Of a DNA stretch of 32,000 nt, positions 8,496 through 25,323 are shown piece by piece. Made by a program: the position numbers and the translations under genes. The notes beneath the pieces are model-generated. The model was not told where the DNA came from and did not search any database. It saw only the letters and a list, made by a program, of their open reading frames with translations. Numbering within the stretch: position 1 is the stretch's first letter; the number at the start of each line of letters is the position of its first letter. The stretch comes from Trichlorobacter lovleyi SZ. GTDB taxonomy: Bacteria; Desulfobacterota; Desulfuromonadia; Geobacterales; Pseudopelobacteraceae. Where the stretch lies: NCBI RefSeq assembly GCF_000020385.1, contig NC_010814.1:930001-962000 (forward strand), given 5' to 3'.

Positions 8496-9219
8496 GAAAC
8501 TGCAAAAGGCCATGGAGACCCTTGGGCTGCATGGCATGAAGACTGCCTGTGACGAGCTGATCGCCACAGGCATCAAACAACGGGCCACACCGGAGAAGAT
8601 CCTGTTTGAGCTGCTTAATGCAGAGCTGGCTGAACGGAGAATCAGAAGTATCCGCTACCGCCTGAGTCAGGCAAGGTTTCCAGTAGAGAAGGACCTGGAT
8701 CACTTTGAGTTTACGGATACACCGATCAACGAGACACAGGTCAGAATGCTGTATGAGGGAGGCTTTCTTACTGAAAAGAGTAATATCATTCTGGTAGGTG
8801 GAACCGGTACCGGCAAGACCCATCTGGCCATTGCCATTGCACGGCAGGTGATCAGAAACGGTAAGCGTGGCCGATACTTCAACCTGCTGGATCTGGTCAA
8901 CCAACTAGAACAGGAAAAGCTAAGCGGACGCGGAGGAAAGCTTGCAGAGGCACTCTGCAGGCTTGATCTGGTTGTGCTGGACGAACTGGGCTATCTGCCG
9001 TTCTCAAAGGCTGGAGGACAGCTGCTGTTTCACCTTATATCAAAGCTGTACGAGAGAACATCGCTTATCATTACCACTAACCTGACCTTTGGAGAATGGC
9101 CGCAGGTGTTCGGTGATGGCAAAATGACCACGGCACTTCTGGACAGGGTTACCCATCACTGCGAAATCGTCGAAACAGGAAATGAAAGCTGGAGAATCAA
9201 AACCAGAAACTCAGACTAA
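8455..9219 (+). CDS. istB: IS21-family helper ATPase IstB
   Basis: Walker [12 protein letters not shown], Walker [10 protein letters not shown]. Overlaps the istA 3' end. The true start is probably GTG 8482, which follows a GGAGG. Confidence 0.9.
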
Positions 9220-10604: not shown

Positions 10605-10829
10605 TCATGCCTGGGCTTTTTCAAGCTCCTTTGCCCTGGAAAAGAACTCCTGCGCCTTGATCTGCCCCAGTGTCAGGTTGTTTATCAATACCTCGGTCTG
10701 CTGCGAGTCGCATGGCGGAAGACGCTCCGCGTACTCTTTTGAGGTGTCAAACAGGCCCCTCAGCATCAGGAAGGCCCTTTTCATGTCCCTCAACTCTTTT
10801 GCCGCTATCGTTGCCGTCTGTGCGTCCAT
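10605..10829 (-). CDS. Small hypothetical protein (74 aa, predicted helical)
   Basis: AGGATGGGGA RBS-like sequence directly upstream. No family recognised. Confidence 0.45.
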   Translation of the reverse strand: MDAQTATIAAKELRDMKRAFLMLRGLFDTSKEYAERLPPCDSQQTEVLINNLTLGQIKAQEFFSRAKELEKAQA

Positions 10830-10936: not shown

Positions 10937-11962
10937 TTAAGGAGCAATATCACAACAGGCCAGGCACTGCTGCAAACGTCTGAGATCCGCCATCAAGGCC
11001 TCAAAGCCGGGAAAGGTCAGGGATTGAGGGCCGTCGGACAAGGCCTTTTCAGGCTCGGGATGCACCTCTACCAGAACACCGTGGGCACCGGCCACCAGGG
11101 CAGCCTTGGACATCGGGGTGACCAGGCTCCGTTTGCCGGTGGCATGGGAGGGATCAACCATGACCGGCAGGTGGGTCAGTTCCTTGACCAGCGGTACCAT
11201 GGCCAGGTCAAGGGTGTTGCGGGTGGCGGTCTCAAAGGTGCGGATGCCCCGCTCGCAGAGGATGACTTGGTCATTCCCTTCGGCCAGGATGTATTCGGCG
11301 GCGGCCAGAAATTCTTCAATGGTGGCGCTCATGCCACGCTTCAGCAGGATCGGCTTTCTGATCCTGCCCAGTTCACGCAGCAGGTCAAAGTTCTGCATGT
11401 TGCGGGCACCGACCTGCAGCAGGTCGGCATACTCGGCCACCAGGGCAACGTTGTCGGGGCTCATGACTTCGGTGACGATCGGCAGGCCGGTGGCTGCACG
11501 GGCCTTGGCCAGCAGTTTTAACCCTTCTTCCCGCAGCCCCTGGAAGGTGTGGGGGCCGGTGCGGGGTTTGAAGGCGCCGCCCCGCAGCAGGTCTGCTCCG
11601 CACTGTTTGACAAAGCGGGCGGTCTTGAGGATCTGTTCTTCCGATTCAACGGCGCAGGGACCGCCAACCACCACCGGACGCTCTCCCTCGCCGATCTTGA
11701 CGCCGGCCACGTCAACGATGGTGTTGTCCGGGTGAAAGTCACGGGAGACCAGTTTGTACGGCTTGGAGACATGGATCGCCTGTTGTACGCCGGGCAGGTC
11801 GCGGATCGTGCTGTCATCCACATACCCCTTGTTGCCCAGGACGCCGATGGCGGTCCGCTCACCACCGGGAATCGGGGCGGCGGTAAATCCCATCCCGCTG
11901 ACTACCTCAATGACCTTGTCTATATCGGCCTGGCTGGCGGTGTGATTCATTACGATCAACAT
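10937..11962 (-). CDS. aroF: 3-deoxy-7-phosphoheptulonate (DAHP) synthase, type I-beta with N-terminal regulatory (FL/ACT-like) domain
   Basis: 341 aa. The N-terminal ~70-aa domain followed by a KDO8PS/DAHPS-like TIM barrel ([22 protein letters not shown]) matches Thermotoga-type DAHPS. Confidence 0.85.
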
Positions 11963-11986
11963 TACTTAAAGCCTTTCCTGGTCCTG

Positions 11987-13438
11987 CTAAAAGGGATACT
12001 GCCGTGTCTCCATTTCCAGAGTAACCCACTGTTGCTCGGTGAATTCGTGCATCGCTTCAATGCCGAATTTCCCCCATCCGCTATTGTTCACACCTCCCAA
12101 AGGGGCATGGGTTTCACCATAGAGTGGAGAATCATTGACATGGCAGGCACCGGACTCAATCCGGCGCGCCAATGCTAGTCCCTGCTGCATGTTGTTGGTG
12201 AGTATGCCTGCAGAAAGCCCATAAGCTGAACTGTTTGCCAACCGTAAAGCGTCATCCGCGTCTTCAGCAACAATGATCGGGGCTACCGGACCAAAGGTTT
12301 CTTCATGAAAGATTGACATGTCTTCGCGTACATTGCCCAGTACTGTCGGATGATAGCAGAGCCCGTTTCCATAGCCTCCGCATAGCAATTCGGCGCCTTC
12401 AGCCACCGCCCGATTTACTTGACCCTCCAAGGTTTCGTACTGTTTGTGATTAATCAGGGGGCCGATTACGGTCGCAGCATCCAGAGGGTTACCCACCTTT
12501 AATGCTGAGGTTCGAGCCACAAATCTTGCGGTAAACTCTTGAGCTACCGTTTTTTCTATAATGAGTCGTTTGGCGTTCATGCAGACCTGCCCCTGATGAA
12601 GAAAACGTCCAAAAATAGCAGCATTGACGGCATGATCCATGTCTGCATCGTTCAAAACGATCAGCGGATCATTGCCGCCCAGTTCCAGAGCTATTCGTTT
12701 GAGATGCCTTCCACATTTTTCGGCAAGTTCACGCCCGACCCGGGTAGAACCGGTAAAGCTGATCCTCTTGACCCGCCGGTCCTGAATAAAGAGATCGCCA
12801 ACTTCGCTGCTTCTGCCATAGCCATGGGTTACGATATTGAACACGCCCTTGGGAAAACCCGCTTCTTCAAACAGCTCTGCCAAGAGAATGCCGCCACTGA
12901 CCGGAGACTCCTCTGACGGTTTCAGTACCACGGTATTGCCGTAGGCCATGGCAAAACAGACTGCGCGCAGACTGAGTACAACGGGACAGTTCCAGGGAGA
13001 TATCCCGGCAACGACACCGACAGGATGTCTCATTACCATTGAAACCTTAGTGGTTTCCGAGGGGAGTATCGTGCCTGTGACCCGATGTGCCTGTGAACCG
13101 GCCTCTCGCAAATAGTTGGGGCCGGCAGCTGCCTGATAGGCGGCAAAAGGCCGTGCTGCGCCGGTTTCCCGGGCAAGCAGGTCAATCAGCTCATCCTTGC
13201 GCTTTTCAAGCAGGTCGGCCGCCTTCAAGAATAAGAGGCGCTTTTGGGAGGGGGCAACGGCTGCCCAGTCTGGAAATGCGTCAGCTGCTGCGTTAACAGC
13301 CAACAGCGCATCCTGTTGGCTGCCGTTTGCCACCGTTGTCAATATCTCTCCCGTGTAGGGATTGAAATCATCAAACCAGCTACCGTCTGCAGAATCCTGC
13401 CACGTGCCGTTGATATACATCTGATAGCCGCTTCTCAT
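11987..13438 (-). CDS. NAD(P)+-dependent aldehyde dehydrogenase (possibly aromatic-aldehyde clade)
   Basis: ELGGNDP and FLHQGQVCMNAKR (catalytic Cys) motifs, 483 aa. HQGQ(I/V)CM resembles benzaldehyde/vanillin dehydrogenases (recalled from memory). Confidence 0.85.
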   Translation of the reverse strand: MRSGYQMYINGTWQDSADGSWFDDFNPYTGEILTTVANGSQQDALLAVNAAADAFPDWAAVAPSQKRLLFLKAADLLEKRKDELIDLLARETGAARPFAAYQAAAGPNYLREAGSQAHRVTGTILPSETTKVSMVMRHPVGVVAGISPWNCPVVLSLRAVCFAMAYGNTVVLKPSEESPVSGGILLAELFEEAGFPKGVFNIVTHGYGRSSEVGDLFIQDRRVKRISFTGSTRVGRELAEKCGRHLKRIALELGGNDPLIVLNDADMDHAVNAAIFGRFLHQGQVCMNAKRLIIEKTVAQEFTARFVARTSALKVGNPLDAATVIGPLINHKQYETLEGQVNRAVAEGAELLCGGYGNGLCYHPTVLGNVREDMSIFHEETFGPVAPIIVAEDADDALRLANSSAYGLSAGILTNNMQQGLALARRIESGACHVNDSPLYGETHAPLGGVNNSGWGKFGIEAMHEFTEQQWVTLEMETRQYPF

Positions 13439-13458
13439 GGCGATAGCATTTCCTTTAG

Positions 13459-13600
13459 CAGGCTGTTGAAAAACTACTACGGAGCCCGTCTACGGCGTTG
13501 CGCGGTGCTCGCTCCTTCTCCTAACTATGCGTTATGTCTCAGTCGCTGTGCGCCGTGCGCCTTGTAGCCGTGCTTCCTCATAACGTTTTTCAACAGCCTG
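13459..13600. repeat. 142-bp palindromic (MITE/REP-like) intergenic element
   Basis: Perfect 16-bp terminal inverted repeat CAGGCTGTTGAAAAAC (13459-13474) / GTTTTTCAACAGCCTG (13585-13600). The interior is partially self-complementary and GC-rich. Confidence 0.65.
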
Positions 13601-13657
13601 TTAGACGGTTTTACGGGGTGCACTAAACTGTAGCATGGCCTCTGAAAGGCCTGGCGC

Positions 13658-14089
13658 TCAACAGATCCGGCTTACCATGTCAACCGGCCGGATGGTTCCG
13701 CCGGCAATCACCCTGGCAAAGATCCCTTCCTTCGGCATGACGCAATCCCCGGCCTGGTGGTAGATGGCGCAGCGGTTATGGCACTCCTTGCCGATCTGGG
13801 TCACCTCAAGAACGGTCTGGCCGACCTGCAGACGGCTGCCGATCGGCAGAGAAACCAGGTCAATACCGCTGGTGGTGATATTCTCGGCAAAATCACCGGT
13901 GGTGACATCCAGGCCTAAAGCTCGCATTTTATCGATACTTTCCTGGGCCAGCAGGCTGATCTGGCGATGCCACTCTCCGGCATGGGCATCACCGACAATG
14001 CCGTGGTTTTCCTGCACCAGCACGGATTCCGCGGGGGTCTTGCGCTGACCTTTAGCGGAACTTACACAGACAGCAATCACCTGAGCCAT
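13658..14089 (-). CDS. MOSC domain-containing protein
   Basis: GIVGDAHAG...HRQISLL...GDFAENITT.G..L..LPIG..L.VG...LEVTQIGKECH pattern. GGAGG RBS before the ATG at 14089 (the ORF-track start at 14101 is less likely). Confidence 0.8.
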   Translation of the reverse strand: MAQVIAVCVSSAKGQRKTPAESVLVQENHGIVGDAHAGEWHRQISLLAQESIDKMRALGLDVTTGDFAENITTSGIDLVSLPIGSRLQVGQTVLEVTQIGKECHNRCAIYHQAGDCVMPKEGIFARVIAGGTIRPVDMVSRIC

Positions 14090-14129
14090 ATATTCCTCCA
14101 ATCAAAGCAAACTGGTCTACTGAGCTGCA

Positions 14130-14651
14130 TCAAGCGGCCATGCCCTGCACAACCCGCTTTATAATGAATTCTGCAACCTGGGCCGGGTTGTTCAGGTCCA
14201 GGACCGGCACATCCAGCTGCAGCGGTTCATCGCTGGCCACTGCCAGCAGGGCCGGATCATGATATTCACCCCGGCAGATCAGCTTCGCCTCTCCCGCACG
14301 GCGGTGAACCTCAATCTTGGGCAGCGTGCTGCGCTTGAACCCCTCAACAAGTACCAGATCCACGTCCTCAAAATAGGCGGCAATCAGCTCCTCCGGAGAG
14401 GGGGAGGCGGCATGGCGTTTTACCAGCGCCAGGGTCTCCGACGAGGTGATGACCGTGGTATCGGCACCGGCATGGGTGAAGCGGTAACTGTCCTTGCCCG
14501 GGTGATCGATCTCAAAGCGGTGGGCATCGTGCTTGATCGCGCCGACCCGTACTCCCCGTGCCTTAAGTGCCACGATGACCTTTTCGAGCAGCGTTGTCTT
14601 GCCGGTTCCTGAAGGGGCAACGAATGAGACGACCGGTTTGTGCATGTTCAC
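14130..14651 (-). CDS. mobB: Molybdopterin-guanine dinucleotide biosynthesis adapter protein MobB
   Basis: VSFVAPSGTGKTTLLEKVI (P-loop), IKHDAHRFEIDHPGKDSYR. Confidence 0.85.
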   Translation of the reverse strand: MNMHKPVVSFVAPSGTGKTTLLEKVIVALKARGVRVGAIKHDAHRFEIDHPGKDSYRFTHAGADTTVITSSETLALVKRHAASPSPEELIAAYFEDVDLVLVEGFKRSTLPKIEVHRRAGEAKLICRGEYHDPALLAVASDEPLQLDVPVLDLNNPAQVAEFIIKRVVQGMAA

Positions 14652-14762
14652 CTCACCGGTTCGCCTGCAGGGCGACCGGTATCTTCATGACGTTTATCTG
14701 CCTGGTGCCGTGTAACTCTCATTTTTACGGATACTCCTCCCGCCTGCTGAATCTCTCTTTCT

Positions 14763-15823
14763 CCTGATTAGCGCCAATCTTCCGCTTGGCGAAGTTTTGC
14801 TTCCGGCAGCTTCTTTGTTTTGACCGCTGCCGCCACGAGTCGCTTTAGCATGCCAGCCAGATCAAAGCGGCGGTTGAAACGATATTGAAACTCGCCAAGG
14901 TAGCGATAGGCATATTTCTCAAAGTCAAAGGCATGGTAGGTGCCAGTTATAGAGTTTTTCAGATTGCCGAGAACCGTATTGATCCAGCTGAAGCATTTCA
15001 TGCTGGTACTTTTTCTGTCTTTACCAACGACCTCACGCTGATGAACACATCCGGCAGCCTCAACTGCCTGGAAACACCAGAGGCCATCGGATACGATTAA
15101 AGCTGATGGTGCAAGGAAACTTTTGGCCCATATTTCGACTTCTTCCTTGCAGAAGCTCTTTACCGTACTGAATACCGCATAGAGTGGATGGCCTTGGTTG
15201 TTGGTCTGTACAGCAGCAATAAACGGCACCTTGTTTTCAGAGCCGCGGCCAACCTTGCCACCGGGTAGTTCACCGCCGAGGTAGGCATCATCTACCTCAA
15301 CGCGGTCTGATAATACGGTTGTTTGCTCACGTTCAAACATGGCCTGCATTATTTTGTGCTTGATGCGCCAGGCAGCACGATAGCTGATACCAGCCAGACG
15401 TCGGAGTTCCAGGATCGATACATTATTCTTGCTCTGTGTCAGAAAGAACATGGCCTGGAACCAGATCGTCAGCGGTAACTTTGTTGAGTGAAAGAGCGTC
15501 CCCTCAGTAAGGGTAGTCTGGGTTCTACAGGAACTGCACTGGAACACCTTGACTGAAACACCACGCCGATAGGTGAAGTGGTGAGTATTACCACATTTGG
15601 AACAGGTAAAACCGCCGGGCCAACGGGCTGACTCTACAACCGTCTCACATTGTTCCTGAGAGCCGTACAACTCAAGGAACTTGTTCAGACTAAGTCCTGG
15701 CTGAAACTGTATCAGATTCATTTTCATGGCAACCACCTCCGCATAAGTTGCCATGAATCTTAACATGCTGTAGTGACCAAATATGTCGTTTTGCCAATCT
15801 GCGGAAGATTGGCGCTAATCAGG
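14763..15823 (-). mobile_element. IS1595-family insertion sequence, 1061 bp, perfect 23-bp IRs and 8-bp TSD CTCTTTCT
   Basis: CCTGATTAGCGCCAATCTTCCGC (14763-14785) is the exact reverse complement of 15801-15823. CTCTTTCT at 14755-14762 and 15824-15831. Confidence 0.9.
14768..15727 (-). CDS. IS1595-family transposase (N-terminal zinc ribbon + DDE domain)
   Basis: CSKCGN...CSSCRTQ zinc ribbon, then VEVDDAYLGG and GRGSENKVPFIAAV typical of ISXO2-like/IS1595 transposases. GGAGGTGG RBS before MKMNLIQ. The stop lies inside the IR. Confidence 0.85.
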   Translation of the reverse strand: MKMNLIQFQPGLSLNKFLELYGSQEQCETVVESARWPGGFTCSKCGNTHHFTYRRGVSVKVFQCSSCRTQTTLTEGTLFHSTKLPLTIWFQAMFFLTQSKNNVSILELRRLAGISYRAAWRIKHKIMQAMFEREQTTVLSDRVEVDDAYLGGELPGGKVGRGSENKVPFIAAVQTNNQGHPLYAVFSTVKSFCKEEVEIWAKSFLAPSALIVSDGLWCFQAVEAAGCVHQREVVGKDRKSTSMKCFSWINTVLGNLKNSITGTYHAFDFEKYAYRYLGEFQYRFNRRFDLAGMLKRLVAAAVKTKKLPEAKLRQAEDWR

Positions 15824-15850
15824 CTCTTTCTTGAGGTGAGAGATAACAGG

Positions 15851-15874
15851 CTCCCCCCTTCGGTAAGGGGGGAG
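15851..15874 (-). terminator. GC hairpin downstream of the CDGSH gene
   Basis: ctcccccc-ttcggtaa-ggggggag, 26 nt beyond the stop at 15900. No strong U-tract. Confidence 0.4.
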
Positions 15875-15899
15875 TGAGGGGGGATGTCGTTGTTACGGA

Positions 15900-16241
15900 C
15901 TACTTTGTGTGACTGCCGTCGCAGAACGGGGCTGTCTTTGTCTTGCCGCAGTTGCACAGCTTGACCTGTTGCTTTTCCGTGATCTCGAATTCAAGCGGAG
16001 ACATGCCGCTGCCTGCATGCGATCCGTCGCAGAACGGCATGGTCTTTGATTTTCCGCAGGTACAGCGCTGATAGGTGCCGGGCTCCAGCTCGACCGTAAT
16101 CGGCTCTGGCTTGGGCTCTTCTCCGAGTGCTGTCTTGCAGAACGGACAGATCTTTTGTTTCACTCCGCCTATCGCTGCAAGCTTCTTCTTGCAATTCGGG
16201 CACTCCTGCGGCTTGTTTACTCCTGCTGGTCTAAAACACAT
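15900..16241 (-). CDS. Zinc-ribbon protein with two CDGSH-type [2Fe-2S] domains
   Basis: Two exact CDGSH signatures, CTCGKSKTMPFCDGSH and CNCGKTKTAPFCDGSH. N-terminal CPNCK...CPFCK ribbon. GGGAGGAG RBS. Confidence 0.85.
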   Translation of the reverse strand: MCFRPAGVNKPQECPNCKKKLAAIGGVKQKICPFCKTALGEEPKPEPITVELEPGTYQRCTCGKSKTMPFCDGSHAGSGMSPLEFEITEKQQVKLCNCGKTKTAPFCDGSHTK

Positions 16242-16303: not shown

Positions 16304-16319
16304 AGCATCTGCCATGCCA
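16304..16319 (-). promoter_or_regulatory. Sigma-54 (-24/-12) promoter candidate for the CDGSH gene
   Basis: The minus strand reads TGGCATGGcagaTGCT, with GG-N10-GC spacing correct. About 60 nt upstream of ATG 16241. Confidence 0.6.
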
Positions 16320-16399
16320 TTCTTGTTGAATGCGCTAACATGTCAATTTTGCGGTAGTTGTTAATTAATGTCTGGACAGTATATTCTTCTTTTGGCATT

Positions 16400-16409
16400 G
16401 TGATTATCA
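16400..16409. promoter_or_regulatory. Candidate enhancer (UAS) TTGATAATCA (palindromic core TGATWATCA)
   Basis: Read in the promoter orientation it is the same 10-mer as at 18268-18277. The core centre is 87.5 bp from the GG of the 16304-16319 promoter. It also lies about 25 nt upstream of the activator's own start codon. Confidence 0.5.
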
Positions 16410-16430
16410 ATTTGAGATAGGGAGGATGCC

Positions 16431-18137
16431 ATGAAGATTGCCGATATGGATCTGCGGGAGATGCTTTCTTTCAACCCCGAAGGGGGGATCATACACCTGT
16501 TGGGCGAACGGGTTCTGATACATAACGCAAATGTTTCAGGGCTGCTGAAAAAAGAGCTGATCGATTCGCTGGGGGTGTTTACCGCACGCTGCATCCTGAC
16601 CCGTCTCGGCTTTGCCAACGGTTGGCAGACGGCAAAAAACCTGGAACAGCATGCTCCTGACGTCTGGAAGGAATCAAGGAAGTACGCCGGTGCAAAGCTG
16701 CATTCCCTGACCGGATTTAACAACGTTACCCTTAACACCCGTACAGATGGATCTGACGGCAAGTCCCTGATTGAATCGGTCTGGCACGACTGCTATGAGG
16801 CGGAACAGCACCTGCTGCATTTTGGCCGCTCGGAAGAACCGGCATGCTGGCGGGAGGTTGCCTTTGCAAGCGGTTTTGCATCCTATGTCGAGGGGCGGGA
16901 GGTCTATTTTATCGAGGATCAGTGCCGCGCAATGGGGCATGACACCTGCCATGTCACGGCCCGTTACAAAGAGAACTGGGGATCTGAGCTGGAGCCGTAT
17001 CTGCGGTACTACCGCATGGAATCCTCAGCGGCCATCATGCGGGAGCTGAATGAAAAGTTGATCAGTGTGGAAAAGAGGTTGCGTAAGAAGGAGGAGCATT
17101 TCGCCTTTCTTGAGGGGGCCACAACCCCCACGCTGGTTATGTCCCGCAGCCGTGCCATGAAGAACGTGGTCGATATGGCCTGGCGGGTTGCCAAGGTGGA
17201 TTCATCGGTGCTGGTCACCGGCGAAAGCGGCTCCGGCAAGGAGCTGATGGCCCGCTTCATCCATGACCAGTCGCCCCGGGCCGCACAGCCTTTTATTGCG
17301 GTAAACTGCGGCGCACTTACCGAGACATTGCTGGAAAGCGAGCTGTTCGGCCATGCCAAAGGTTCGTTCACCGGTGCGGACCGGGATCGCCCCGGTCTCT
17401 TTGAGGCTGCTGCCGGCGGCACCCTGTTTCTGGATGAGATCGGCGAGGTCTCGCCGGCCATGCAGGTCAAGCTGCTGCGCGCCCTGCAGGAGCGTGAGGT
17501 CCGCAGGGTGGGTGAGAACAAATCGCGCAAGATTGATGTGCGGGTCGTTACGGCAACCAACCGCAACCTGGCTGACGAAATTGCCCAGGGCCGTTTCCGG
17601 CAGGATCTCTACTACCGTCTGCGGGTCATTGAGCTGCAGGTGCCGCCGCTGCGGGAGCGCAACGAAGATATCCTGCCCCTGACCCGAATGTTCCTGGCCA
17701 AGCTGGTGAAACAGATGAAGCTGCAGATTACCGGATTTACCTCCAAGGCAGCTGCGCAATTTCTGCGCTACAGCTGGCCGGGTAATGTCCGCGAGCTTCA
17801 AAACGCGGTGGAGTACGCCGTTGCCATGTGCCAGGGGGCGCAGATCGATGTTGACGACCTGCCCTGCGACCTGCGGGCACTTTCCCTGAGGCCGGTGGTC
17901 TCAGACTGCATCCGTCCGTTGGAGGAGATCGAGCGGGATTACATCATCGGCGTGCTGCGTGCCCTTGGCGGCAACAAGGTGCTGGCGGCTAGCGAGCTGA
18001 ACATCGGTCTGGCCACGCTGTACCGCAAACTGAAGGAGTATGAGGCGCAGGGGGCAATCTCTCTTGATGAGCTCGGCAGCCAGACCGGCTCTACCCCGTC
18101 GGCCAAGTGCAAGTCGCAACGGCCGGAGCCTGCCTGA
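16431..18137 (+). CDS. Sigma-54-dependent transcriptional activator, XylR/DmpR type (XylR_N + V4R sensor, AAA+, Fis-type HTH)
   Basis: The N-terminal LSFNPEGGIIHLLGERVLI...ARCILTRLGFANGW resembles the XylR N-domain/V4R. GESGSGKE Walker A, ESELFGH, GSFTGA (GAFTGA variant). C-terminal HTH AASELNIGLATLYRKLKEY. Confidence 0.9.
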   Translation: MKIADMDLREMLSFNPEGGIIHLLGERVLIHNANVSGLLKKELIDSLGVFTARCILTRLGFANGWQTAKNLEQHAPDVWKESRKYAGAKLHSLTGFNNVTLNTRTDGSDGKSLIESVWHDCYEAEQHLLHFGRSEEPACWREVAFASGFASYVEGREVYFIEDQCRAMGHDTCHVTARYKENWGSELEPYLRYYRMESSAAIMRELNEKLISVEKRLRKKEEHFAFLEGATTPTLVMSRSRAMKNVVDMAWRVAKVDSSVLVTGESGSGKELMARFIHDQSPRAAQPFIAVNCGALTETLLESELFGHAKGSFTGADRDRPGLFEAAAGGTLFLDEIGEVSPAMQVKLLRALQEREVRRVGENKSRKIDVRVVTATNRNLADEIAQGRFRQDLYYRLRVIELQVPPLRERNEDILPLTRMFLAKLVKQMKLQITGFTSKAAAQFLRYSWPGNVRELQNAVEYAVAMCQGAQIDVDDLPCDLRALSLRPVVSDCIRPLEEIERDYIIGVLRALGGNKVLAASELNIGLATLYRKLKEYEAQGAISLDELGSQTGSTPSAKCKSQRPEPA

Positions 18138-18169
18138 TACCCCAATCCTGACGCCTCAGATCTTTCAGG

Positions 18170-18220
18170 CGGCATCACCTGTGACAGTTCGCTCAGTTCA
18201 CGGGTGATGCCGTTTTTTTT
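18170..18220 (+). terminator. Rho-independent terminator of the activator gene
   Basis: cggcatcacc (18170-18179) pairs with ggtgatgccg (18203-18212), followed by T8 (18213-18220). Confidence 0.75.
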
Positions 18221-18267
18221 CACCACCGTTCCCCCTCCGGCAACAACGTCCAAAAGCCGATATCATT

Positions 18268-18277
18268 TTGATAATCA
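18268..18277. promoter_or_regulatory. Candidate enhancer (UAS) TTGATAATCA
   Basis: Same 10-mer as at 16400-16409 (minus strand there). The TGATAATCA core centre is 87.5 bp upstream of the GG of the 18359 promoter. It overlaps the further short palindromes GATATC and ATCATGAT. Confidence 0.5.
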
Positions 18278-18358
18278 TGATTTTCAGTTCGACATGCTAT
18301 CGCGGCCATCCGGCCTGCTTTGGTTTGCATCAGTCTGTAATTGTTAGCTATTTGATGG

Positions 18359-18374
18359 TGGCACAATCATTGCT
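18359..18374 (+). promoter_or_regulatory. Sigma-54 promoter (consensus-quality)
   Basis: TGGCACaatcaTTGCT. 68 nt upstream of ATG 18442 and just downstream of the sigma-54 activator gene and its terminator. Confidence 0.8.
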
Positions 18375-18441: not shown

Positions 18442-19230
18442 ATGCAAACCAGCATCGTCATTTTTACCAGGGTGCCGAAAACAGGCGACACCAAGACCAG
18501 GCTTACCACTGCCAGAGGCGGTATTCTCACTGATGACGAGGCACGGATGCTCTACGAGGGCTGTCTTGTCGACGTGATCAACGTTTGCATCGCAGCCGGT
18601 TGTGGTGAGGTCAAGGTCTGCTACAACGCCTCCGGCGACCGCGACTGTCTGGAGCAGTTGCTGGCACGCAGCTCGGACAGGTCAAAGATCGTTGAGGTCT
18701 ACCCTGATCAGGGAGGCAGTTTTGATGACTGCATGCAATATGCCGCCGATCATATCCTGAAAGCCGCGCCAGGGGCGCCGGAACCGGCAGCGGTGATCAT
18801 TGTCGGCGGGGATATCCCCACCCTGCAGCCGTACATCGTGCAGGATGCGGTCAAAAAACTGCATGATCTTGCCAAGGCGCAACCGGGCGGCAGCGCCCTG
18901 GTTGAAGGGGCCTGCCAGGAGGGCGGATTCTCACTGGTCGGTTTCACCTCCAGTACACCATTCGACTTCAACAAGGTCTTCTATAACATGGACGGCATCA
19001 CGGCACTGGATATGCTGGTGGCCAAGGCCGTTGACAAGAAGATTCCTCTGGCGGTGGTCGAGGCGGTGCCGGATGTGGATATTCCGGTAGACCTGGCCAG
19101 CATGATTCCGGTGGTCAAGGCGCTCAGGGCGGCATCTGTCTACAACGACGCCATTTTAGTGCCGGAGCATACGCTGCAGGTGCTGGATGAACTCGGTCTG
19201 GAGAGTACGGCGTCGCCTCCGCAGCGCTAA
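18442..19230 (+). CDS. DUF2064-like (MobA/CofC-like nucleotidyltransferase/GT-A fold) protein, paralog A
   Basis: IVIFTRVPKTGDTKTRLTT, VIIVGGDIPTLQP, EGGFSLVG and VPDVDIPVDL match the DUF2064 pattern (KaP.pG.vKTRL ... GsDiP ... DGGy.LiG ... DvD). AAGGGA RBS. The ORF-track N-terminal extension (18268) overlaps the promoter and is rejected. Confidence 0.7.
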   Translation: MQTSIVIFTRVPKTGDTKTRLTTARGGILTDDEARMLYEGCLVDVINVCIAAGCGEVKVCYNASGDRDCLEQLLARSSDRSKIVEVYPDQGGSFDDCMQYAADHILKAAPGAPEPAAVIIVGGDIPTLQPYIVQDAVKKLHDLAKAQPGGSALVEGACQEGGFSLVGFTSSTPFDFNKVFYNMDGITALDMLVAKAVDKKIPLAVVEAVPDVDIPVDLASMIPVVKALRAASVYNDAILVPEHTLQVLDELGLESTASPPQR

Positions 19231-19258
19231 CAGACCATCTACAGTCATTTGTCGCCAT

Positions 19259-20230
19259 ATGAAAGGAACCGCTGTGAACCATCAGGAATTATCCCGAGAT
19301 CTGAAAGAACTGCTTACCCTGCGATGGTCCCCCGTAGCGGTCAGGCTGCTGAAGCATGGAGAAGAAAAGCCGGCCAACGTCTTTGAGCCATCCGTGCCGC
19401 TCAGGCATTGCCAGGCCATAACCGCGGCGCGGCGGGGCAACAGCATCTACATGCCCCCTGCCAAACATGCCTGCCCCGACGGGTCGGCAATCATGGGGCT
19501 GATCCCGATGTCGCCCAAGCTGCGTTCCGGTGAACTGTACCTGCTGTTCAAGAAACTGCCCAACATAGAAATAGCCCGCAAAATGATCGCATCGCGGTCC
19601 GAGTTTGCCACCGGCACCTACCGTGCCAGCGTGGTTGCACCGCTGGAGGATGCCGAATTCACGCCCGATGTTGTCATCTTTACCCTCTACCCCGAGCAGG
19701 CGATGTGGTGCTGTTGCGCCTCAAGCTACGGCAGCGGCGACCGGCAGGTCTTCAACACCTCGGGCTTTAACTCCACCTGCTCCGATCTGACGGTGCAGGT
19801 GATGAAGAGTCAGCGGATGAATATCTCCTTCGGCTGCTACGGAGCCAGGGCGATCAGTGATATCAGCGATTTTGAGACCTACCTCGCCATTCCCTACGAC
19901 CAGCTGCCGGCGCTGATCGAATCCCTGAAAAAACTGGCGGTGAAGAGCATCCCCGAGGCGCGGCGCAAGATCTACATGCCGCCGGTCATTGACAACGTCT
20001 CCGGGCCGGAACAACAGGAAGGCTGCCATGTCTCCGTCCGGATACAGCAGGATCGCTGCAACGGCTGCGAACTCTGCGTTGCCTTCTGCCCGGATGCCGT
20101 GCTGGAGATGCGGGAGACCGAAAACGGACCCAAGGCGGTGGCGGTTGCCGAGGAAAAATGCAGCAGCTGCTATACCTGTGTCGGCCAGTGCCCGCAAAAG
20201 GCGATCCAGCTGGAACAGCGGGCGAACTAG
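19259..20230 (+). CDS. DUF169-like protein fused to a C-terminal 2x[4Fe-4S] ferredoxin domain
   Basis: WSPVAVRLL...LRHCQAI..ARRG...ACPDGSAIMGL resembles DUF169/COG2043. The C-terminus has CNGCELCVAFCP and CSSCYTCVGQCP. The start may be GTG 19274 (AAAGGAA RBS) rather than ATG 19259. Confidence 0.65.
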   Translation: MKGTAVNHQELSRDLKELLTLRWSPVAVRLLKHGEEKPANVFEPSVPLRHCQAITAARRGNSIYMPPAKHACPDGSAIMGLIPMSPKLRSGELYLLFKKLPNIEIARKMIASRSEFATGTYRASVVAPLEDAEFTPDVVIFTLYPEQAMWCCCASSYGSGDRQVFNTSGFNSTCSDLTVQVMKSQRMNISFGCYGARAISDISDFETYLAIPYDQLPALIESLKKLAVKSIPEARRKIYMPPVIDNVSGPEQQEGCHVSVRIQQDRCNGCELCVAFCPDAVLEMRETENGPKAVAVAEEKCSSCYTCVGQCPQKAIQLEQRAN

Positions 20231-20257
20231 ACCGGCTTTTGCTGCAAGGGGGAAGAC

Positions 20258-20755
20258 GTGCCATACGAAATCAGATTTGCCGACAGCACTGATGTAGAGG
20301 TCCTGCAGGGTATCTTTCTTGAGAGTGATATGGACCTGGCCGGCGAGATTGAAGAGCATATCGTGATCAGCAGGGGTGATAGCATTATCGGTGGCGGTAT
20401 GCTGACCCAGACGGATCAGGATCTGTTTCATCTGATTGTCTTTGCCATCAGCGAGCATGAACGCACCCATGGCCTGGGCCGGCTGCTGCTTGAAAGGTTG
20501 CTGCAACAGCCCTGGGCCTTTTGCCGGGACGCCAGCATGCCGGAGTGCAGCAGCTATCGGGTCACCACAGTGGCAAAGGGGAAGAGCGCCGGTTTCTACG
20601 GCAAACTCGGCTTTGTCCCGTGCGACTTCAGCGATCTGGCAGCGCCCTTTGCCGGACAGTGCGATGACTGTCCGGAGGCCGCTGACTGCTATCCGGTGGC
20701 CATGAACTGCAACTGCTCACGTATGCCGTCAGGGTCGGAGGGAGCGCTATCATGA
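20258..20755 (+). CDS. GNAT-family N-acetyltransferase
   Basis: GTG start after GGGGGAAG. The acetyl-CoA binding-type block HERTHGLGRLLLERLL and C-terminal FYGKLGFV are typical of GNATs. Confidence 0.7.
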   Translation: MPYEIRFADSTDVEVLQGIFLESDMDLAGEIEEHIVISRGDSIIGGGMLTQTDQDLFHLIVFAISEHERTHGLGRLLLERLLQQPWAFCRDASMPECSSYRVTTVAKGKSAGFYGKLGFVPCDFSDLAAPFAGQCDDCPEAADCYPVAMNCNCSRMPSGSEGALS

Positions 20756-21564
20756 GCAACGCCGCCTTTATCCTGCTGGGCAGCGGCGCCGGTCCCGGTG
20801 CCCCCTCTTTTTTCTGCGACTGTGTCGGCTGCCGGGAGGCGCGGGAACATCCCGCCGCCATCAGGACACGCAGCGGCGCACTGCTGACCACCGCCGGTCA
20901 GCAGGTGCTGATCGACACCCCGCCGGATCTCAGACAACAGTTGCTGAGGGAACGGGTTTCCGACGTTGATACGCTGTTCATCACCCACTGGCATTATGAC
21001 CATTTCGGCGGGATCGGCGAGCTTGAGTACTATGTCAAGCTGAAGCGCATGCAGCCGATCACACTCTATCTGCCCCCTTCGGCACGGGAGCTGTTTCATA
21101 ACGCCTTTCCTGCGCTTGAGGAGATCTTTACGGTGCAGACCTGGGAGTTCTTTCGATCCTACCCGCTGGGTGAGCTCCTAATTACGCCGCTACCGGCCCG
21201 CCACAGCATTGAAACCGCCGGATTCATGGTCAGTTCGCCGACTGTCCGGCTGGCCTATTTCCCGGATACCGCCGGTCTCCCCCCGGAGACGCTGCCGTTG
21301 GTGCAGGGGTCTGATTACCTGATCTGCGACGCCACCTTTAGCGGTGAAAACTGGTTTCCCAACAGCCATATGTCCATTGCCGAGGCGATTGAGCTGGGGC
21401 AGCAGGCCGAGGCAAAGACAGTGATTCTGACCCATATCTCCGTCCATTACAGCCGGCCGTTGACCAGTGTTGAGTTACAGCAGCAGCTGGCAGCGCATCC
21501 CCATGTCCGGGCTGCCCATGACGGCATGGTGATACCCCTGTCCGGTGAGGGGGTAAAACGATGA
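20752..21564 (+). CDS. MBL-fold metallo-hydrolase, PhnP/PqqB-like
   Basis: GSGAGPGAPSFFCDCVGCREAR parallels E. coli PhnP [22 protein letters not shown]. HxHxDH motif THWHYDHFGG. 4-bp ATGA overlap with the GNAT gene. Confidence 0.75.
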   Translation: MSNAAFILLGSGAGPGAPSFFCDCVGCREAREHPAAIRTRSGALLTTAGQQVLIDTPPDLRQQLLRERVSDVDTLFITHWHYDHFGGIGELEYYVKLKRMQPITLYLPPSARELFHNAFPALEEIFTVQTWEFFRSYPLGELLITPLPARHSIETAGFMVSSPTVRLAYFPDTAGLPPETLPLVQGSDYLICDATFSGENWFPNSHMSIAEAIELGQQAEAKTVILTHISVHYSRPLTSVELQQQLAAHPHVRAAHDGMVIPLSGEGVKR

Positions 21565-22148
21565 AACGCTCTCTGGGAGCAGCGACACTGTCACTTCCCT
21601 CGCCGGTCTGGGTTATCGGCAGTTTTGATGCACAGGGCCGGCCGAATCTGATGACCGTCTCCTGGGCCGGTATCTGCTGCTCGGACCCGCCCTGCGTTGC
21701 TATCTCCGTACGGAAGAACCGGCTGACCCATCGCAATATCAGCACGACCGGGGCCTTCACGGTCAATGTGCCCGGCTGCCGCCATCTTGCCCAGGCCGAC
21801 CTGATCGGGATGGTGTCCGGAGTTGTGGCCGACAAGTTTGCGACAACCGGCCTGACCGCTGTGAGCAGTGAACTGGTCAATGCCCCCTATGTACAGGAAT
21901 TCCCCCTCAACCTCGAATGCCGCGTGCTGCACAGTAGTGACCTGGGCAGCCATACCCAGTTCATCGGCCTGATCTGTGATGTCAAGGCTGATGAAGCGGT
22001 GCTTGGCAGGCAGGGAGTGCCGCTTGCCGGGCTGGTACAGCCGGTCCTGGCCAGTGCCCCGGAACGCTCCTATTACACCCTTGGTCCGCAACTGGTCAGG
22101 ACCGCGACCGCAGGCAAGGCCCTGCAGCCAGACCAGCCTGCTGTCTGA
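21561..22148 (+). CDS. Flavin reductase-like (FMN-binding split-barrel, flavoredoxin-type) protein
   Basis: SPVWVIGSFDAQGRPNLMTVSWAGICCSDPPCVAISVRKNR.TH.NI..TGAFTVNV pattern. 4-bp overlap with the upstream gene. Confidence 0.7.
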   Translation: MKRSLGAATLSLPSPVWVIGSFDAQGRPNLMTVSWAGICCSDPPCVAISVRKNRLTHRNISTTGAFTVNVPGCRHLAQADLIGMVSGVVADKFATTGLTAVSSELVNAPYVQEFPLNLECRVLHSSDLGSHTQFIGLICDVKADEAVLGRQGVPLAGLVQPVLASAPERSYYTLGPQLVRTATAGKALQPDQPAV

Positions 22149-22178
22149 TCAGCTACGAAATGTTAGGAATAGACTGCC

Positions 22179-25100
22179 ATGCCCTTTAATCATTCAGACT
22201 GGATACGGCTTCCGTTAGCCTCATCAGCACTGTACCTTGCCCCGGGACAGCCTGCCTGGTTTGTTCCCACGGCAGAGGGGGATCGCCTGCTCTGCTCAGC
22301 GGCCTCCGGCGCTGTTCTGCAGGACAGTGACTCACAACTGTTTCTGCAGCGGCTGCCAAAAGGTACGCCGGCTGTCTATCCGGGCAGAGAACTGCTGCTG
22401 CCCAGGTCTCCCGCATTGCGGGAACTCTGGTTCCATGTCACCGACGCCTGCAACATGAGCTGCAGCCATTGTCTGTTCAGCGCCGGGCCGGGACACTACC
22501 GCCAACTGCCGCTTGATCAGCTGCTGCAGCATGCCGCCACCGCCTACGGATCGCTGGACTGCCGTCTGTTCGCCCTGACCGGCGGAGAGCCGCTGATGTA
22601 TGACGGTTTCAGCCGGTTGATTGAAGGACTGCTGGAACATCAGGATGCTCAGTTGGTGATTTTGAGCAACGGCCTCCTGGCAGACCGGAAGCTTGATCCT
22701 GCCTGGCCCAGGGAGCGGATTCGCCTCCAGATCAGCCTTGACGGTTCACCTGAACAGCATGACGCCGTGCGGGGCAAGGGCAGTTTTGCGTTGCTGCAAA
22801 AACAGCTGCTGTTCCTCAAGGAAAACGGCTGGCAGTTTACCCTCAGCATGTGTCCGACACAGGCCAATCATCAGGATATCCCCTGGCTGGTTGACTTTGC
22901 TGCAGATATGGGGGCGGCAGCGGTTCATTACATGTGGTACTTCATCAGGGGCAGGGGCTCTGAGGAGCAGGCCGTTGCGCCGGTGCAGCTGCTGCCTTTG
23001 CTGGCCGCTGCCATGGAACGCTCTCACAGCAGAGGGGTGCCGATTGACAATCTTGAGGCGATCAGGCAGCGGATCTTCTCGCCGCCGGGCACGATCCATG
23101 ACGGCAGCAGCGCCGGTGTTGAGTCGGCGGCCATCGGGCCTGACAACCGCCTCTATCCCACCGCAGCAACCGTCGGAGTCCGGCAGCTGTCAACCGCTCT
23201 GGAGGCAGGGCTTGCTGCAGCCTGGCAGCAAAGCGAGGTGCTGGCGGAGATACGCCGGACCACAGCAGCTTCGCTCAATACTCCCTGGCGCTACCTCCAT
23301 GGCGGCGGAGACTTTGACCACAGCTATTTCCACGCTGGCAGCTACCAGGGGAGTGATCCCTACCAGCCCCTGATCGAATCGATCTCGCTGCTGCTGATTG
23401 AGCAGGCCGCCAATCGCTTGCCGGAACCGGCCGGAGCAGCCATCCGGCTGAAGATGGGTGAGCTGCTTGAGAACTGCAGCTCCCACGGACCGGTGGCCCT
23501 CTGCCAGAGCAACTGCCTGCTGCATGACACCCGGGACAGCCGTTCCGGGGTGAAGCAGTTCTATGCCGAGGCCGCAGGTGACCGTCGTGCCGATATCCTG
23601 AACCCGGTCTCCTATGCAGACCCGTTGTTAAGCCATATCCCGGCGGAATTCCGTTTTCGCGGCTACGGTTGCGGCAGCCCGATCCTGGATGCCGCCCTGC
23701 AGGCCGGTGAGCGGGTGGTTGATCTCGGCAGCGGCACCGGGGTGGAATGCTTTATCGCTGCCCGCCAGGTTGGTGCTGAAGGGCAGGTAACCGGGGTCGA
23801 TATGCTGGACCCGATGCTGGCACTGGCCAATCGCGGTGCAGAGCAGGTGCGGGCCACGCTCGGTTTCGACAATCTGCGTTTTGTGAAGGGCTATCTGGAG
23901 GCGCTGCCCCTTGAGACAGGCAGCGTTGATGTGCTGGTCTCCAACTGCGTCTTGAACCTGTCGCCGGACAAACGGCGGACCTTTGCCGAGATCTGCCGCG
24001 TGCTGGCTCCGGGTGGCCGGATGGTTGTTGCGGATGTGGTCTGTGAAGATCAGCCACCGGCAGCCATCCTGAATGATGATGAGCTGCGCGGTGAATGCAT
24101 TGCCGGTGCCATGACCCACAAGGATCTGGCCGGTATCGTCGCCGAAAGCGGTCTCTGGCGCTACCGGATCATCCGGCGGCTTCCCTACCGTACCGTCCAG
24201 GGCCATCCCTTTTATTCACTGACCTTCGTGGCTGAAAAGCCTGCTGGTCTGCATGACCTTTGCACGGAAAAGGTCATCTATCCCGGTCCGGCAGAGGCGT
24301 TGAAACTCTCCGGCCAGACCTGGCTCCGGGCCGGTCAACCGGCGTTGATTGCAAAGCAGGAGGCGGAGCTATTCGGGGATCAGCTCTGGAGAATCGATTC
24401 CTTCGGCTTTGTTGACAACGTGGCGATGTCCGGCGGTTCCTGTTGCTCCCAGCCGCCGGAGGCCCACCAGCAGTCTCAACCTGCCAAACCGGCGGAACCG
24501 CAGCACAGCTCCGGCTGCCTGGTCTGCAGTGCCCCGCTGGTCTATACGGCAGCACCCCAGGAAATGACCTGCCACTATTGCGGCGCAGGCGTCAGCAGCC
24601 ACGCAGCCTGCCAGAACGGGCATTTTGTCTGCGACCTGTGCCATATCGGCGACAGCCTGCAGCGTCTGGAACAGCTCTGTAGCAACTCCGGCACGGCAAA
24701 CCCGATGGAGCTGTTCTTACAGATCCGCAATCACCCCTCCTTTCCGCTCCACGGGCCGCAGTACCATGCCCTGGTGCCGGGGGTGTTTCTGGCTGCCCTG
24801 CGTAATGCCGGCCATCCGGTCAGCGATGAGCAGATCAGGACCGCCATCAGCCGCGGTGCGGAGGTGCCGGGCGGGAGCTGCGGTTTCATGGGGGTCTGCG
24901 GCGCTGCAAGCGGTATCGGCATCGCCTTCAGTGTGCTGCTGGAGGCAACTCCGCTCAAGGTCTCCCAGCGTCAGATCGTCCAGCAGGTGGTGCAGCAGGT
25001 GCTGGCAGATATCGCCTCCCAGCAGGCCGCCCGTTGCTGCCAGCGGGATTGCTGGCTGGCGCTGCGCCGTGGCCTCTTGCTGGCCGGTCAGATGTTTGCG

Positions 25101-25298
25101 CTGCCGCTGGAGGAGCTTAAGCCGCTTGCCTGCCGGCAGCTGGACCGGAATAGCGAATGTTCCGGCAACTCCTGTCCGCTCCATCCCGCATCGATCATGC
25201 AGATGCATTTATCAAATCTACAAGAGGTTTTATCAAAAGGATATATGCAGGTAGAACAGCTGATGCAGGTCGTGCTGCAACCGACTGATGTCACTTGA
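22179..25298 (+). CDS. Three-domain fusion: radical SAM domain + ArsM-like SAM-dependent methyltransferase + C-terminal Cys-rich domain (1039 aa)
   Basis: Radical SAM CxxxCxxC at C91/C95/C98 ([15 protein letters not shown]) with LTGGEPL. ArsM-like block YGCGSP...[30 protein letters not shown]...[39 protein letters not shown]...ECIAGAM (about aa 470-690). C-terminal about aa 777-1010: CLVC...CHYC...C..[9 protein letters not shown]...[14 protein letters not shown]...[14 protein letters not shown]. Confidence 0.8.
   Translation: [1039 protein letters not shown]
25208..25237. promoter_or_regulatory. Two direct TTTATCAAA repeats spaced 21 bp (candidate UAS for the internal sigma-54 promoter)
   Basis: 25208-25216 and 25229-25237. 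TTATCAA is the reverse complement of the TTGATAA core found at the other two sigma-54 promoters. The midpoint of the pair is 87 bp from the GG of the 25308 promoter. It lies within the AT-rich last ~30 codons of the 1039-aa ORF. Confidence 0.4.
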
Positions 25299-25307
25299 TT
25301 AACTGGA

Positions 25308-25323
25308 TGGCATGGAGGTTGCT
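25308..25323 (+). promoter_or_regulatory. Sigma-54 promoter (internal to the operon)
   Basis: TGGCATggaggTTGCT, 10 nt after the stop of the 1039-aa ORF and about 124 nt upstream of ATG 25447. Confidence 0.75.

Follow-up and report, generated by a model that had tools for sequence, protein, structure and literature searches.

Activators of the XylR/DmpR class, such as XylR, DmpR, MopR, AphR and HbpR of the Pu, Ps, Po and related sigma-54 promoters, are ligand-sensing proteins built of XylR_N, V4R, AAA+ and HTH_8 domains. They bind at paired sites, 100-200 bp upstream of the promoter and on the same face of the helix; in the canonical form each site is a palindrome of 16-20 bp, and the two centres of a pair are separated by 29-42 bp (PMC6449761). 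XylR also represses its own divergent promoter at Pr/Ps (PMC3253710). Within the sensor of DmpR, His100 and Trp128 position the phenol hydroxyl (PMC7264223); the histidine is typical of phenol-responsive members and is replaced by tyrosine in XylR. Here we describe a locus of Trichlorobacter lovleyi SZ that is organized along similar lines and has a predicted enhancer of a different geometry. In the 32,000-nucleotide stretch analyzed (contig NC_010814.1, positions 930,001 to 962,000 of the forward strand; hereafter the window, with coordinates counted from its first letter), a bipartite element of 34 bp was found 98 bp upstream of each of three sigma-54-type promoters and, as judged by sequence comparison, is most likely the enhancer used by the activator encoded at 16431-18137 (+).

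The locus shares several traits with XylR/DmpR-type systems. These include the domain composition of the activator, two units on one helix face upstream of a -24/-12 promoter, a box of the integration host factor (IHF) type between enhancer and promoter, and the placement of one enhancer in the divergent region beside the regulator gene, an arrangement that allows auto-repression at XylR Pr/Ps (PMC3253710). The short word TTGAT is likewise common to the sites of both. By contrast, canonical sites are of the TTGATCAAATGATCAA or GCTTGATCATTTGATCATGC type (for example, TTGATCAAATGATCAA at -136 in the canonical locus L027), whereas the units described here are 14 bp long, 20 bp apart, contained within 34 bp, weakly symmetric and fixed in their start at 95-98 bp upstream of the T of the promoter TGGCA. 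The recognition helix also differs (IGLATLYRKLKEY here versus LTRPALAYRLKK in the XylR/DmpR type), and a matrix built from the units detects nothing in canonical XylR/DmpR loci. The same logic of enhancer, bend site and -24/-12 promoter is seen in modules of the NtrC family (nifH, glnHp2 and, in Desulfovibrio, OrpR), from which this locus differs in its specific motif, very rigid spacing and regulon content and not in principle. Thus, the enhancer is ordinary in kind and the mechanistic surprise is low, while the regulon is previously undescribed; we found no description of the system in the literature searched.

An element shared by two sigma-54 promoters

Three sigma-54-type promoters of the window were found to keep the GG-N10-GC signature. 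P(-) (TGGCATGGCAGATGCT, 16304-16319, minus strand) has two mismatches to TGGCAC-N5-TTGCW. P(+) (TGGCACAATCATTGCT, 18359-18374, plus strand) has none and is the sole zero-mismatch match in the window. P3 (TGGCATGGAGGTTGCT, 25308-25323, plus strand) has one mismatch and is placed 10 nt 3' of the stop codon of a gene for a 1039-aa protein and 124 nt 5' of a 116-aa open reading frame. An earlier annotation of the window from its letters alone (the sequence-only reading) had given P(-) and P(+) with correct sequences and coordinates and had overlooked P3. The -24/-12 elements are invariant among orthologs of the window promoters, and the GG-N10-GC of P(-) is invariant in nine orthologous loci.

The sequence-only reading had also reported an identical 10-mer, TTGATAATCA, upstream of P(-) and P(+), and both copies were confirmed. 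When both strands of the 32 kb were searched, TTGATAATCA was detected exactly twice, at 16401-16410 (-) and 18268-18277 (+); the former lies 26 nt from the activator ATG at 16431, close to the 25 nt previously estimated. The distance from the centre of the 10-mer core to the midpoint of the promoter GG was verified as 87.5 bp at P(-) and P(+) alike. The shared stretch proved longer than the 10-mer, reading TCA-WW-TTGATAATCA at both promoters.

Dinucleotide-preserving shuffles of the 150-bp regions upstream of P(-) and P(+) were used to estimate how often such a match arises. An identical run of at least 10 nt at equal offset was obtained in 2 of 20,000 shuffles, compared to 15 of 20,000 when an offset of +/-3 bp was allowed and 46 of 2,000 at whatever offset. 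The positional coincidence of the two 10-mers is well beyond chance. That the match is fortuitous, or the functionless relic of a duplicated promoter region, has virtually no probability in our judgment. The AT-richness of the intergenic regions and the 2.3% of shuffles with an any-offset match are in its favor, but the same-offset match is far rarer (the 2 in 20,000 above), the P(-) and P(+) regions of the window revealed no likeness beyond the element and the -24/-12 boxes, and the position of the element is kept in 24 promoters from 14 sequence sources with diverging flanks.

The conserved element is bipartite

Related loci were used to define the conserved footprint. The ortholog set (L001-L003, L081-L085, L087 and L088) carries activators 59-98% identical to that of the window, and both P(-) and P(+) are conserved in this set. 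Nine P(-) regions (alignment A1) and six P(+) regions (alignment A2) were aligned. Outside of the -24/-12 elements, the invariant blocks were TCAWWTTGAKAA, present in both alignments, and a second unit, which appears 6-7 bp beyond TCAWWTTGAKAA as AT..CAAAA.AAGAA at P(-) and as an invariant CAGTTCGA at P(+). In all 16 of the 16 orthologous P(-) and DUF2064-type P(+) promoters, the word TTGAKAA starts 89-91 bp upstream of the TGGCA T.

The conserved element is bipartite and spans about 34 bp. Unit 1 reads TWTCAWWTTGAKAA and unit 2 typically TRTCAAAACAAGAA; each is 14 bp long, the period from one to the other is 20 bp (range 19-21), and both follow the pattern T-N-TCA-WWW-YRA-K-AA. The 10-mer TTGATAATCA corresponds to positions 8-14 of unit 1 plus three spacer bases. 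Across 24 promoters, the start of unit 1 is found 95-98 bp upstream of the TGGCA T, with divergent sequence between enhancer and promoter. Of these, 23 come from the window plus 12 other loci, and P(+) of L002 brings the number of loci besides the window to 13. Relative to the expected transcription start the element covers about -124 to -91, within the range of roughly 80-200 bp upstream of a sigma-54 promoter at which the repeated or dyad units of bacterial enhancer-binding proteins (bEBPs) lie.

At P(-), unit 1 (16404-16417, minus strand; TCTCAAATTGATAA) starts 98 bp upstream of the TGGCA T, includes 7 of the 10 bases of the 10-mer and contains a TGATAA block that is invariant in alignment A1. 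Unit 2 follows after 20 bp (16384-16397, minus strand; TGCCAAAAGAAGAA), and more distant orthologs read TATCAAAACAAGAA at this position. At P(+), unit 1 (18261-18274, plus strand; TATCATTTTGATAA) likewise starts 98 bp upstream and holds 7 of the 10 bases, and unit 2 (18282-18295, plus strand; TTTCAGTTCGACAT), with a period of 21 bp, is kept in six of six P(+) orthologs. The P3 enhancer (25210-25244, plus strand) consists of TATCAAATCTACAA, a 7-nt spacer and TATCAAAAGGATAT, starts 98 bp upstream of the P3 TGGCA T, and is located in the last codons of the 1039-aa gene. Two TTATCAA(A/T) words are present upstream of P3, and a two-unit layout of the P3 type is intergenic in locus L101.

The sequence-only reading had proposed the palindromic core TGATWATCA as the motif and had likened it to the upstream activating sequence (UAS) of XylR. 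A narrow version of the activator model, in which a dimer occupies this 9-bp palindrome as a XylR-like UAS and as the whole site, would account for a palindrome that is exact and identically placed at P(-) and P(+). The ATCA half, however, falls within the variable spacer between the units and is lost in orthologs. P(+) orthologs read TTGAGAAATG, TTGAGAAGCG and TTGATAAACA at the 10-mer site, and the sites themselves are TTGAGAAATGG in L085 and TTGAGAAGCGG in L082, with activators of 93% and 95% identity, respectively, and TTGATAAACAA in L084; P(-) sites read TTGATAATAA in L001, TTGATAAGCC in L083 and L084 and TTGATAAACC in L002. The half-site centres of TGATWATCA, 5-6 bp apart, would probably be too near for a helix-turn-helix dimer, and the conserved footprint is much longer than 9 bp. 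Nor does the clade show the canonical TTGAT-N6-ATCAA spacing of XylR/DmpR sites. Strict searches for TTGAT-Nx-ATCAA and TGAT-Nx-ATCA upstream of the sigma-54 sites of canonical loci yielded few sites; with one mismatch allowed, a usable spacer histogram was obtained, by which TTGAT/ATCAA pairs are separated by N9 in this clade versus N6 in canonical loci. We consider the 9-bp site highly improbable, and the likeness to the XylR UAS turned out to be superficial, as neither the spacing of palindrome pairs nor the recognition helix is that of the canonical systems.

The same comparison bears on a Fur box. The sequence TGATAATCA forms the centre of the Fur consensus GATAATGATAATCATTATC, hand alignment to this 19-bp consensus gave 13 of 19 positions at P(-) and 12 of 19 at P(+), and the first target of P(-) encodes an iron-sulfur protein, such that iron might control the CDGSH gene and the activator. 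Yet the 12-13 matches of 19 are confined to the window; in orthologs the Fur-like centre is gone and GC-rich sequence (AAGCCGGAT, AAACCGGAT) stands in its place. The conserved second unit TCAAAACAAGAA is not Fur-like, and a repressor box would have no reason to keep a fixed 95-98 bp to the sigma-54 promoters of unrelated operons. Control by Fur is therefore extremely improbable.

Two matrices were used to search for the element. A rigid 34-nt matrix with a period of 20, derived from distant loci, scored 16384-16417 at 37.9 bits compared to a shuffle maximum of 13.4; it missed P(+) and P3 and was replaced as a search model by a 14-nt unit matrix with flexible period. The latter was built exclusively from loci with no more than 80% relatedness to the window, and a match had to contain a pair of units spaced by 19-21 bp. 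By this approach the top three matches on both strands of the window were 16384-16417 (-) at 31.1 bits, 18261-18295 (+) at 29.3 bits and 25210-25244 (+) at 27.9 bits, each of which begins exactly 98 bp upstream of the TGGCA T of its own promoter. The next match in the window scored 19.1 bits and the shuffle maximum was 13.5 bits. Similarly, the word WWTTGATAW was found five times in the window compared to 0.65 expected, with four of the five upstream of the three promoters. Neither the fifth copy (10682-10690) nor the fourth-best unit pair (8763-8796) has a suitably placed sigma-54 site, and both were judged to be chance matches. When the unit matrix was applied to 619 kb from 77 other sigma-54-activator loci, including canonical XylR/DmpR-type loci, only one match of at least 22 bits was detected (22.8 bits) and none was higher.

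The enhancer accompanies a rare clade of activators

A homolog search with the sensor domain of the activator returned only five proteins, indicating that the clade is rare in the sequences searched. Further loci were reached through homologs of the 116-aa neighbour protein, namely L097 (same genome as L003), L099/L100, L101 and L103. The additional sigma-54 promoters of these loci all have the enhancer element upstream, and their targets are genes for transporters of the major facilitator superfamily (MFS) followed by an 11x-aa/9x-aa pair, MoaA-MOSC genes and molybdopterin oxidoreductase genes. In L002 and L003 a different, hemerythrin-like operon follows the activator gene, and the copy of L002 has its enhancer at -96. 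In every divergent locus examined the enhancer adjoins the activator gene. The conservation of the element across orthologous promoters and its co-occurrence with the activator clade support the proposal of the sequence-only reading that P(-) and P(+) share an upstream activating sequence; one locus, L102, is ambiguous in this respect and is considered below. In L097 (6684-10222), from the Pelobacter-like genome OW818642.1, the regulon adjoins a ModE-like gene (HTH_1 and TOBE domains) and a ModABC-type molybdate transporter.

The activator combines a predicted phenol-type sensor with a distinct recognition helix

The activator gene (16431-18137, plus strand) encodes a predicted bEBP with Pfam matches to XylR_N (1.4e-27), V4R (1.3e-08), Sigma54_activat (7e-72) and HTH_8 (1.2e-11), which is the domain set of the XylR/DmpR class. 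Its loop reads GSFTGA, a variant of GAFTGA, and the NCBIfam MobR model matched it at 364 bits, far under the cutoff of 999. The sensor domain aligned with those of DmpR/CapR (6IY8), MopR (5KBE) and PoxR (5FRU) over about 190-220 residues, with E values of 1e-22 to 1e-24. In the alignments to 6IY8 and 5KBE, the residues equivalent to DmpR His100 and Trp128 are retained, as are the zinc ligands (Cys/Glu/Cys/Cys). The predicted targets are genes for anaerobic molybdoenzymes and their cofactor instead of phenol hydroxylases.

All members of the clade have the same recognition helix, IGLATLYRKLKEYEAQ, even the L103 protein with 71% overall identity. When the C-termini were aligned, this activator displayed IGLATLYRKLKEY where canonical homologs have L(T/S)RPALAYRLKK. 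By its domain architecture the activator is thus assigned to the XylR/DmpR class, yet the enhancer predicted for it is no canonical XylR/DmpR UAS.

Unit 1 of the P(-) enhancer is 13 bp from the activator ATG and abuts the ribosome-binding site, an arrangement that is the same in every divergent locus. With the enhancer this close to the start codon, transcription of the activator gene must read through it, and its position makes autoregulation plausible; by analogy to XylR at Pr/Ps, the activator may repress its own gene. A candidate sigma-70 promoter for the activator gene (TTGTTA-16-TATATT; 16358-16385, plus strand) has its predicted start inside unit 2. Downstream of the activator gene, a hairpin followed by a T-run (18171-18220, plus strand) resembles an intrinsic terminator and suggests that P(+) drives a separate transcription unit.

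An additional conserved block, GTCYAG, was observed at 16365-16375 (-), a few bases downstream of unit 2 (A1 columns ~74-85). It reads TGTCCAGACA in the window and forms a perfect palindrome, TTGTCTAGACAA, in L002, and is confined to promoters that are divergent from an activator gene. The block may belong to the promoter of the activator gene or act as a second operator; no conserved role could be assigned to it or to the sigma-70 candidate.

An IHF-like box lies between enhancer and promoter

We examined the promoters for the IHF consensus WATCARNNNNTTR as applied to Geobacter (PMC7962754). With one mismatch at most, a box was detected at -28/-29 from the TGGCA T in 9 of the 23 tabulated promoters, always in the same orientation, whereas shuffled controls averaged 0.25 and never exceeded 3. 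Seven more of the 23 have a two-mismatch box within -31 to -25, mostly at -28 or -29. The box of L099 is perfect (TATCAATATGTTA). In the window, P(-) has an IHF-like box at 16336-16348 (minus strand; AATTGACATGTTA), which is 29 bp upstream of the TGGCA T and has two mismatches to the consensus, the box at P(+) is weaker than that at P(-), and none was found at P3. One fixed layout, in which a bend site stands between enhancer and promoter, would explain the identical spacing seen by the sequence-only reading.

The presence of WATCAA, the left part of the IHF consensus, in both units raises the alternative that the protein occupying the element itself is not the adjacent activator but a nucleoid protein (IHF, for instance) or a different factor, such as a molybdate-responsive regulator of the ModE type. 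Many of the targets are molybdenum-cofactor genes and L097 includes the HTH_1 and TOBE gene, as would suit the ModE version. On hand inspection, however, the TTR part of the IHF consensus is absent from every unit, the 10-mer itself does not match WATCARNNNNTTR, the only exact consensus match in the window is elsewhere, at 5800, and a separate and better IHF-like box is present at -28/-29. Moreover, enhancers typically occupy positions like that of the element (about -124 to -91), the activator gene always has one copy beside it, and the 619 kb of other sigma-54-activator loci lack the element. Binding of the element by a factor other than the activator is thus unlikely.

Proposed mechanism and evidence that opposes it

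Several observations weigh against assignment of the 34-bp element to the activator as its enhancer. The rigid 34-nt matrix gave P(+) just 1.7 bits, and unit 2 is heterogeneous (TGCCAAAAGAAGAA at P(-), TTTCAGTTCGACAT at P(+) and TATCAAAAGGATAT at P3). The definition of the units stems in part from our own consensus scoring. Their symmetry is ambiguous, since direct repeats, TCA-N3-TGA mini-palindromes and an inverted repeat TTGATA-N7-TATCAA can all be recognized in the element; the inverted repeat is perfect in L002, L083 and L084, and distant P(-) orthologs show it followed by AAACAAGAA. The P3 enhancer lies in coding sequence, and the comparison there is between close relatives and L101. The sigma-70 candidate of the activator gene is weak, being kept only among close relatives and absent in distant orthologs. 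Lastly, L102, which had been chosen as a negative control, has a homologous module (GNAT, MBL, flavin reductase, DUF2064 and radical SAM fusion) beside a sigma-54 activator of the PAS type, together with a 33-bit two-unit element (4218-4250) that is intergenic and 386 bp upstream of a recognizable sigma-54 promoter, which is not the canonical distance. Given this ambiguous locus, the link between the predicted enhancer and the sensor type is not exclusive.

Recognition of the element by the activator nevertheless remains the most likely explanation. From the sequences, their conservation and position, the clade specificity and the protein domains, we infer binding, sigma-54 dependence, a role of IHF, an effector and autoregulation as follows. 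The activator, with its DmpR/MopR-like phenol-type sensor, AAA+ and HTH_8 domains, would bind both units, two dimers being the probable form. The sensor would bind an effector, for which a phenolic compound is the probable candidate, and the activator would then oligomerise and reach the sigma-54 RNA polymerase via DNA looping. This looping is probably aided by IHF at the box that precedes the TGGCA T by about 29 bp, which would account for the rigidly conserved spacing. In this manner the activator would open the promoters of the CDGSH(-MobB-MOSC...), DUF2064...radical-SAM and 116-aa/DUF2064 operons and, when bound at the P(-) enhancer, may repress its own gene.

Predicted target genes

The sequence-only reading had assigned the CDGSH gene and the large operon downstream of P(+) to the activator. 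This regulatory prediction appears essentially right and fell short in extent, as the predicted regulon also includes the third promoter at 25308 and further promoters in related genomes.

The first gene downstream of P(-) encodes a CDGSH iron-sulfur protein (15900-16241, minus strand; Pfam zf-CDGSH, 2.6e-18). It is followed by an IS1595-family element (14681-15897; DDE_Tnp_IS1595 match, terminal inverted repeats GATTAGCGCCAATCT) and, based on Pfam, by genes for MobB, MOSC, aldehyde dehydrogenase and DAHP synthase (10937-14651, minus strand). When compared to L085 by BLAST, the extra DNA between CDGSH and MobB, 1217 bp in the window, was found to correspond to 62 bp in L085. In L085 and L088 the CDGSH gene is directly followed by MobB and MOSC and then by aldehyde dehydrogenase and DAHP synthase (L085) or an MFS transporter (L088). 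The MobB-MOSC-aldehyde dehydrogenase-DAHP synthase genes thus probably formed the distal end of an ancestral P(-) operon, which the IS1595 element probably cuts off from its promoter.

The P(+) operon (18442-25298, plus strand) is tightly packed and encodes, by Pfam and NCBIfam matches, DUF2064, DUF169-ferredoxin, GNAT, MBL hydrolase and flavin reductase proteins and the 1039-aa fusion (22179-25298, plus strand). The fusion joins radical SAM, ArsM-like methyltransferase and DUF5714 (MbdU-like metal-binding) domains. Its arsenite-methyltransferase-like domain matched NF008823 at 203 bits, below the cutoff of 263, and no mention of DUF5714 was found in the literature searched. The fusion is kept together with GNAT, MBL, flavin reductase and DUF2064 in L101 and L102. 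Downstream of P3 (25447-27095, plus strand) are genes for the 116-aa protein, which has no family, a second DUF2064 protein and a 97-aa protein; the 11x-aa/9x-aa pair is conserved beside the regulon in L097, L099, L101 and L103. When the window was scanned with Rfam, the leaders gave no match to a riboswitch or to another known RNA.

Other genes of the window encode MoaE, MobA, MoaC, MoCF, a MoaA-like radical SAM protein, two molybdopterin oxidoreductases and transporters, and two insertion sequences are present. The closest solved relative of the molybdopterin oxidoreductases (28836-31031, minus strand, and 159-2429, plus strand) is acetylene hydratase (2E7Z; 336 and 272 bits). The 731-aa enzyme has CRFCGYQC where the hydratase has CQSCDINC, such that the catalytic Asp13 is replaced by Gly, and the assignment of the window enzymes as bona fide acetylene hydratases was rejected. 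Catechol dehydroxylases form a sister group of acetylene hydratase and have homologs reported in Geobacter (PMC7028382), and the enzymes of the window may belong to a group of this catechol-dehydroxylase-like kind. The enhancer was not found before the molybdoenzyme genes of the window, the promoters of which lie beyond it; in related genomes molybdopterin oxidoreductase genes are preceded by this enhancer.

Implications for the regulon

Across the genomes, the targets comprise CDGSH-MobB-MOSC genes, the DUF2064-to-radical-SAM operon, small proteins with no family, MFS transporters, MoaA and acetylene-hydratase-like molybdoenzymes, which suggests that the genes belong to a single inducible pathway whose substrate is aromatic or phenolic. 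The specific cis-element, with its position fixed to within about 3 bp, makes the regulon readable from sequence in relatives among Trichlorobacter, Geobacter and Pelobacter. The regulon so defined links CDGSH, DUF2064, DUF169, DUF5714 fusions and the 116-aa and 97-aa proteins to acetylene-hydratase-like molybdoenzymes and cofactor biosynthesis. In addition, the pairing of a XylR_N/V4R sensor with a DNA specificity and enhancer geometry unlike those of XylR/DmpR may be of use for biosensor design.

A broader reading is offered tentatively, with our doubts somewhat exceeding our confidence. The activator clade might be a phenolic- or catechol-type sensor that serves as master switch of an anaerobic regulon and couples three sets of genes by one promoter layout (enhancer at 98 bp and IHF box at 29 bp upstream of the TGGCA T of a sigma-54 promoter). 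These sets would be molybdo- or tungsto-enzymes of the acetylene-hydratase-like kind, without the catalytic Asp13 and with kinship to catechol dehydroxylases, the dedicated molybdenum-cofactor genes MoaA, MobB, MOSC and MobA-like DUF2064, and a module of DUF169-ferredoxin, GNAT, MBL, flavin reductase and the radical-SAM/ArsM-like/DUF5714 fusion. A phenol-type sensor placed over such enzymes, their cofactor supply and transporters would, speculatively, be a sensible combination. If this were the case, the motif could help to work out what several domains of unknown function do.

Further features of the island

An arylamine N-acetyltransferase gene (4914-5717, plus strand; Acetyltransf_2, 2.6e-62) was found beside genes for an MFS transporter and a CCG-domain iron-sulfur protein, a neighbourhood from which one may suspect that the island deals with aromatic amines or hydroxylamines. 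A gene pair of the IS21 type (an IstA-like transposase with an IstB ATPase; 6981-9219, plus strand) lies within the island next to MoaE and MobA and, together with the IS1595 element, suggests that the region is mobile or was recently rearranged.

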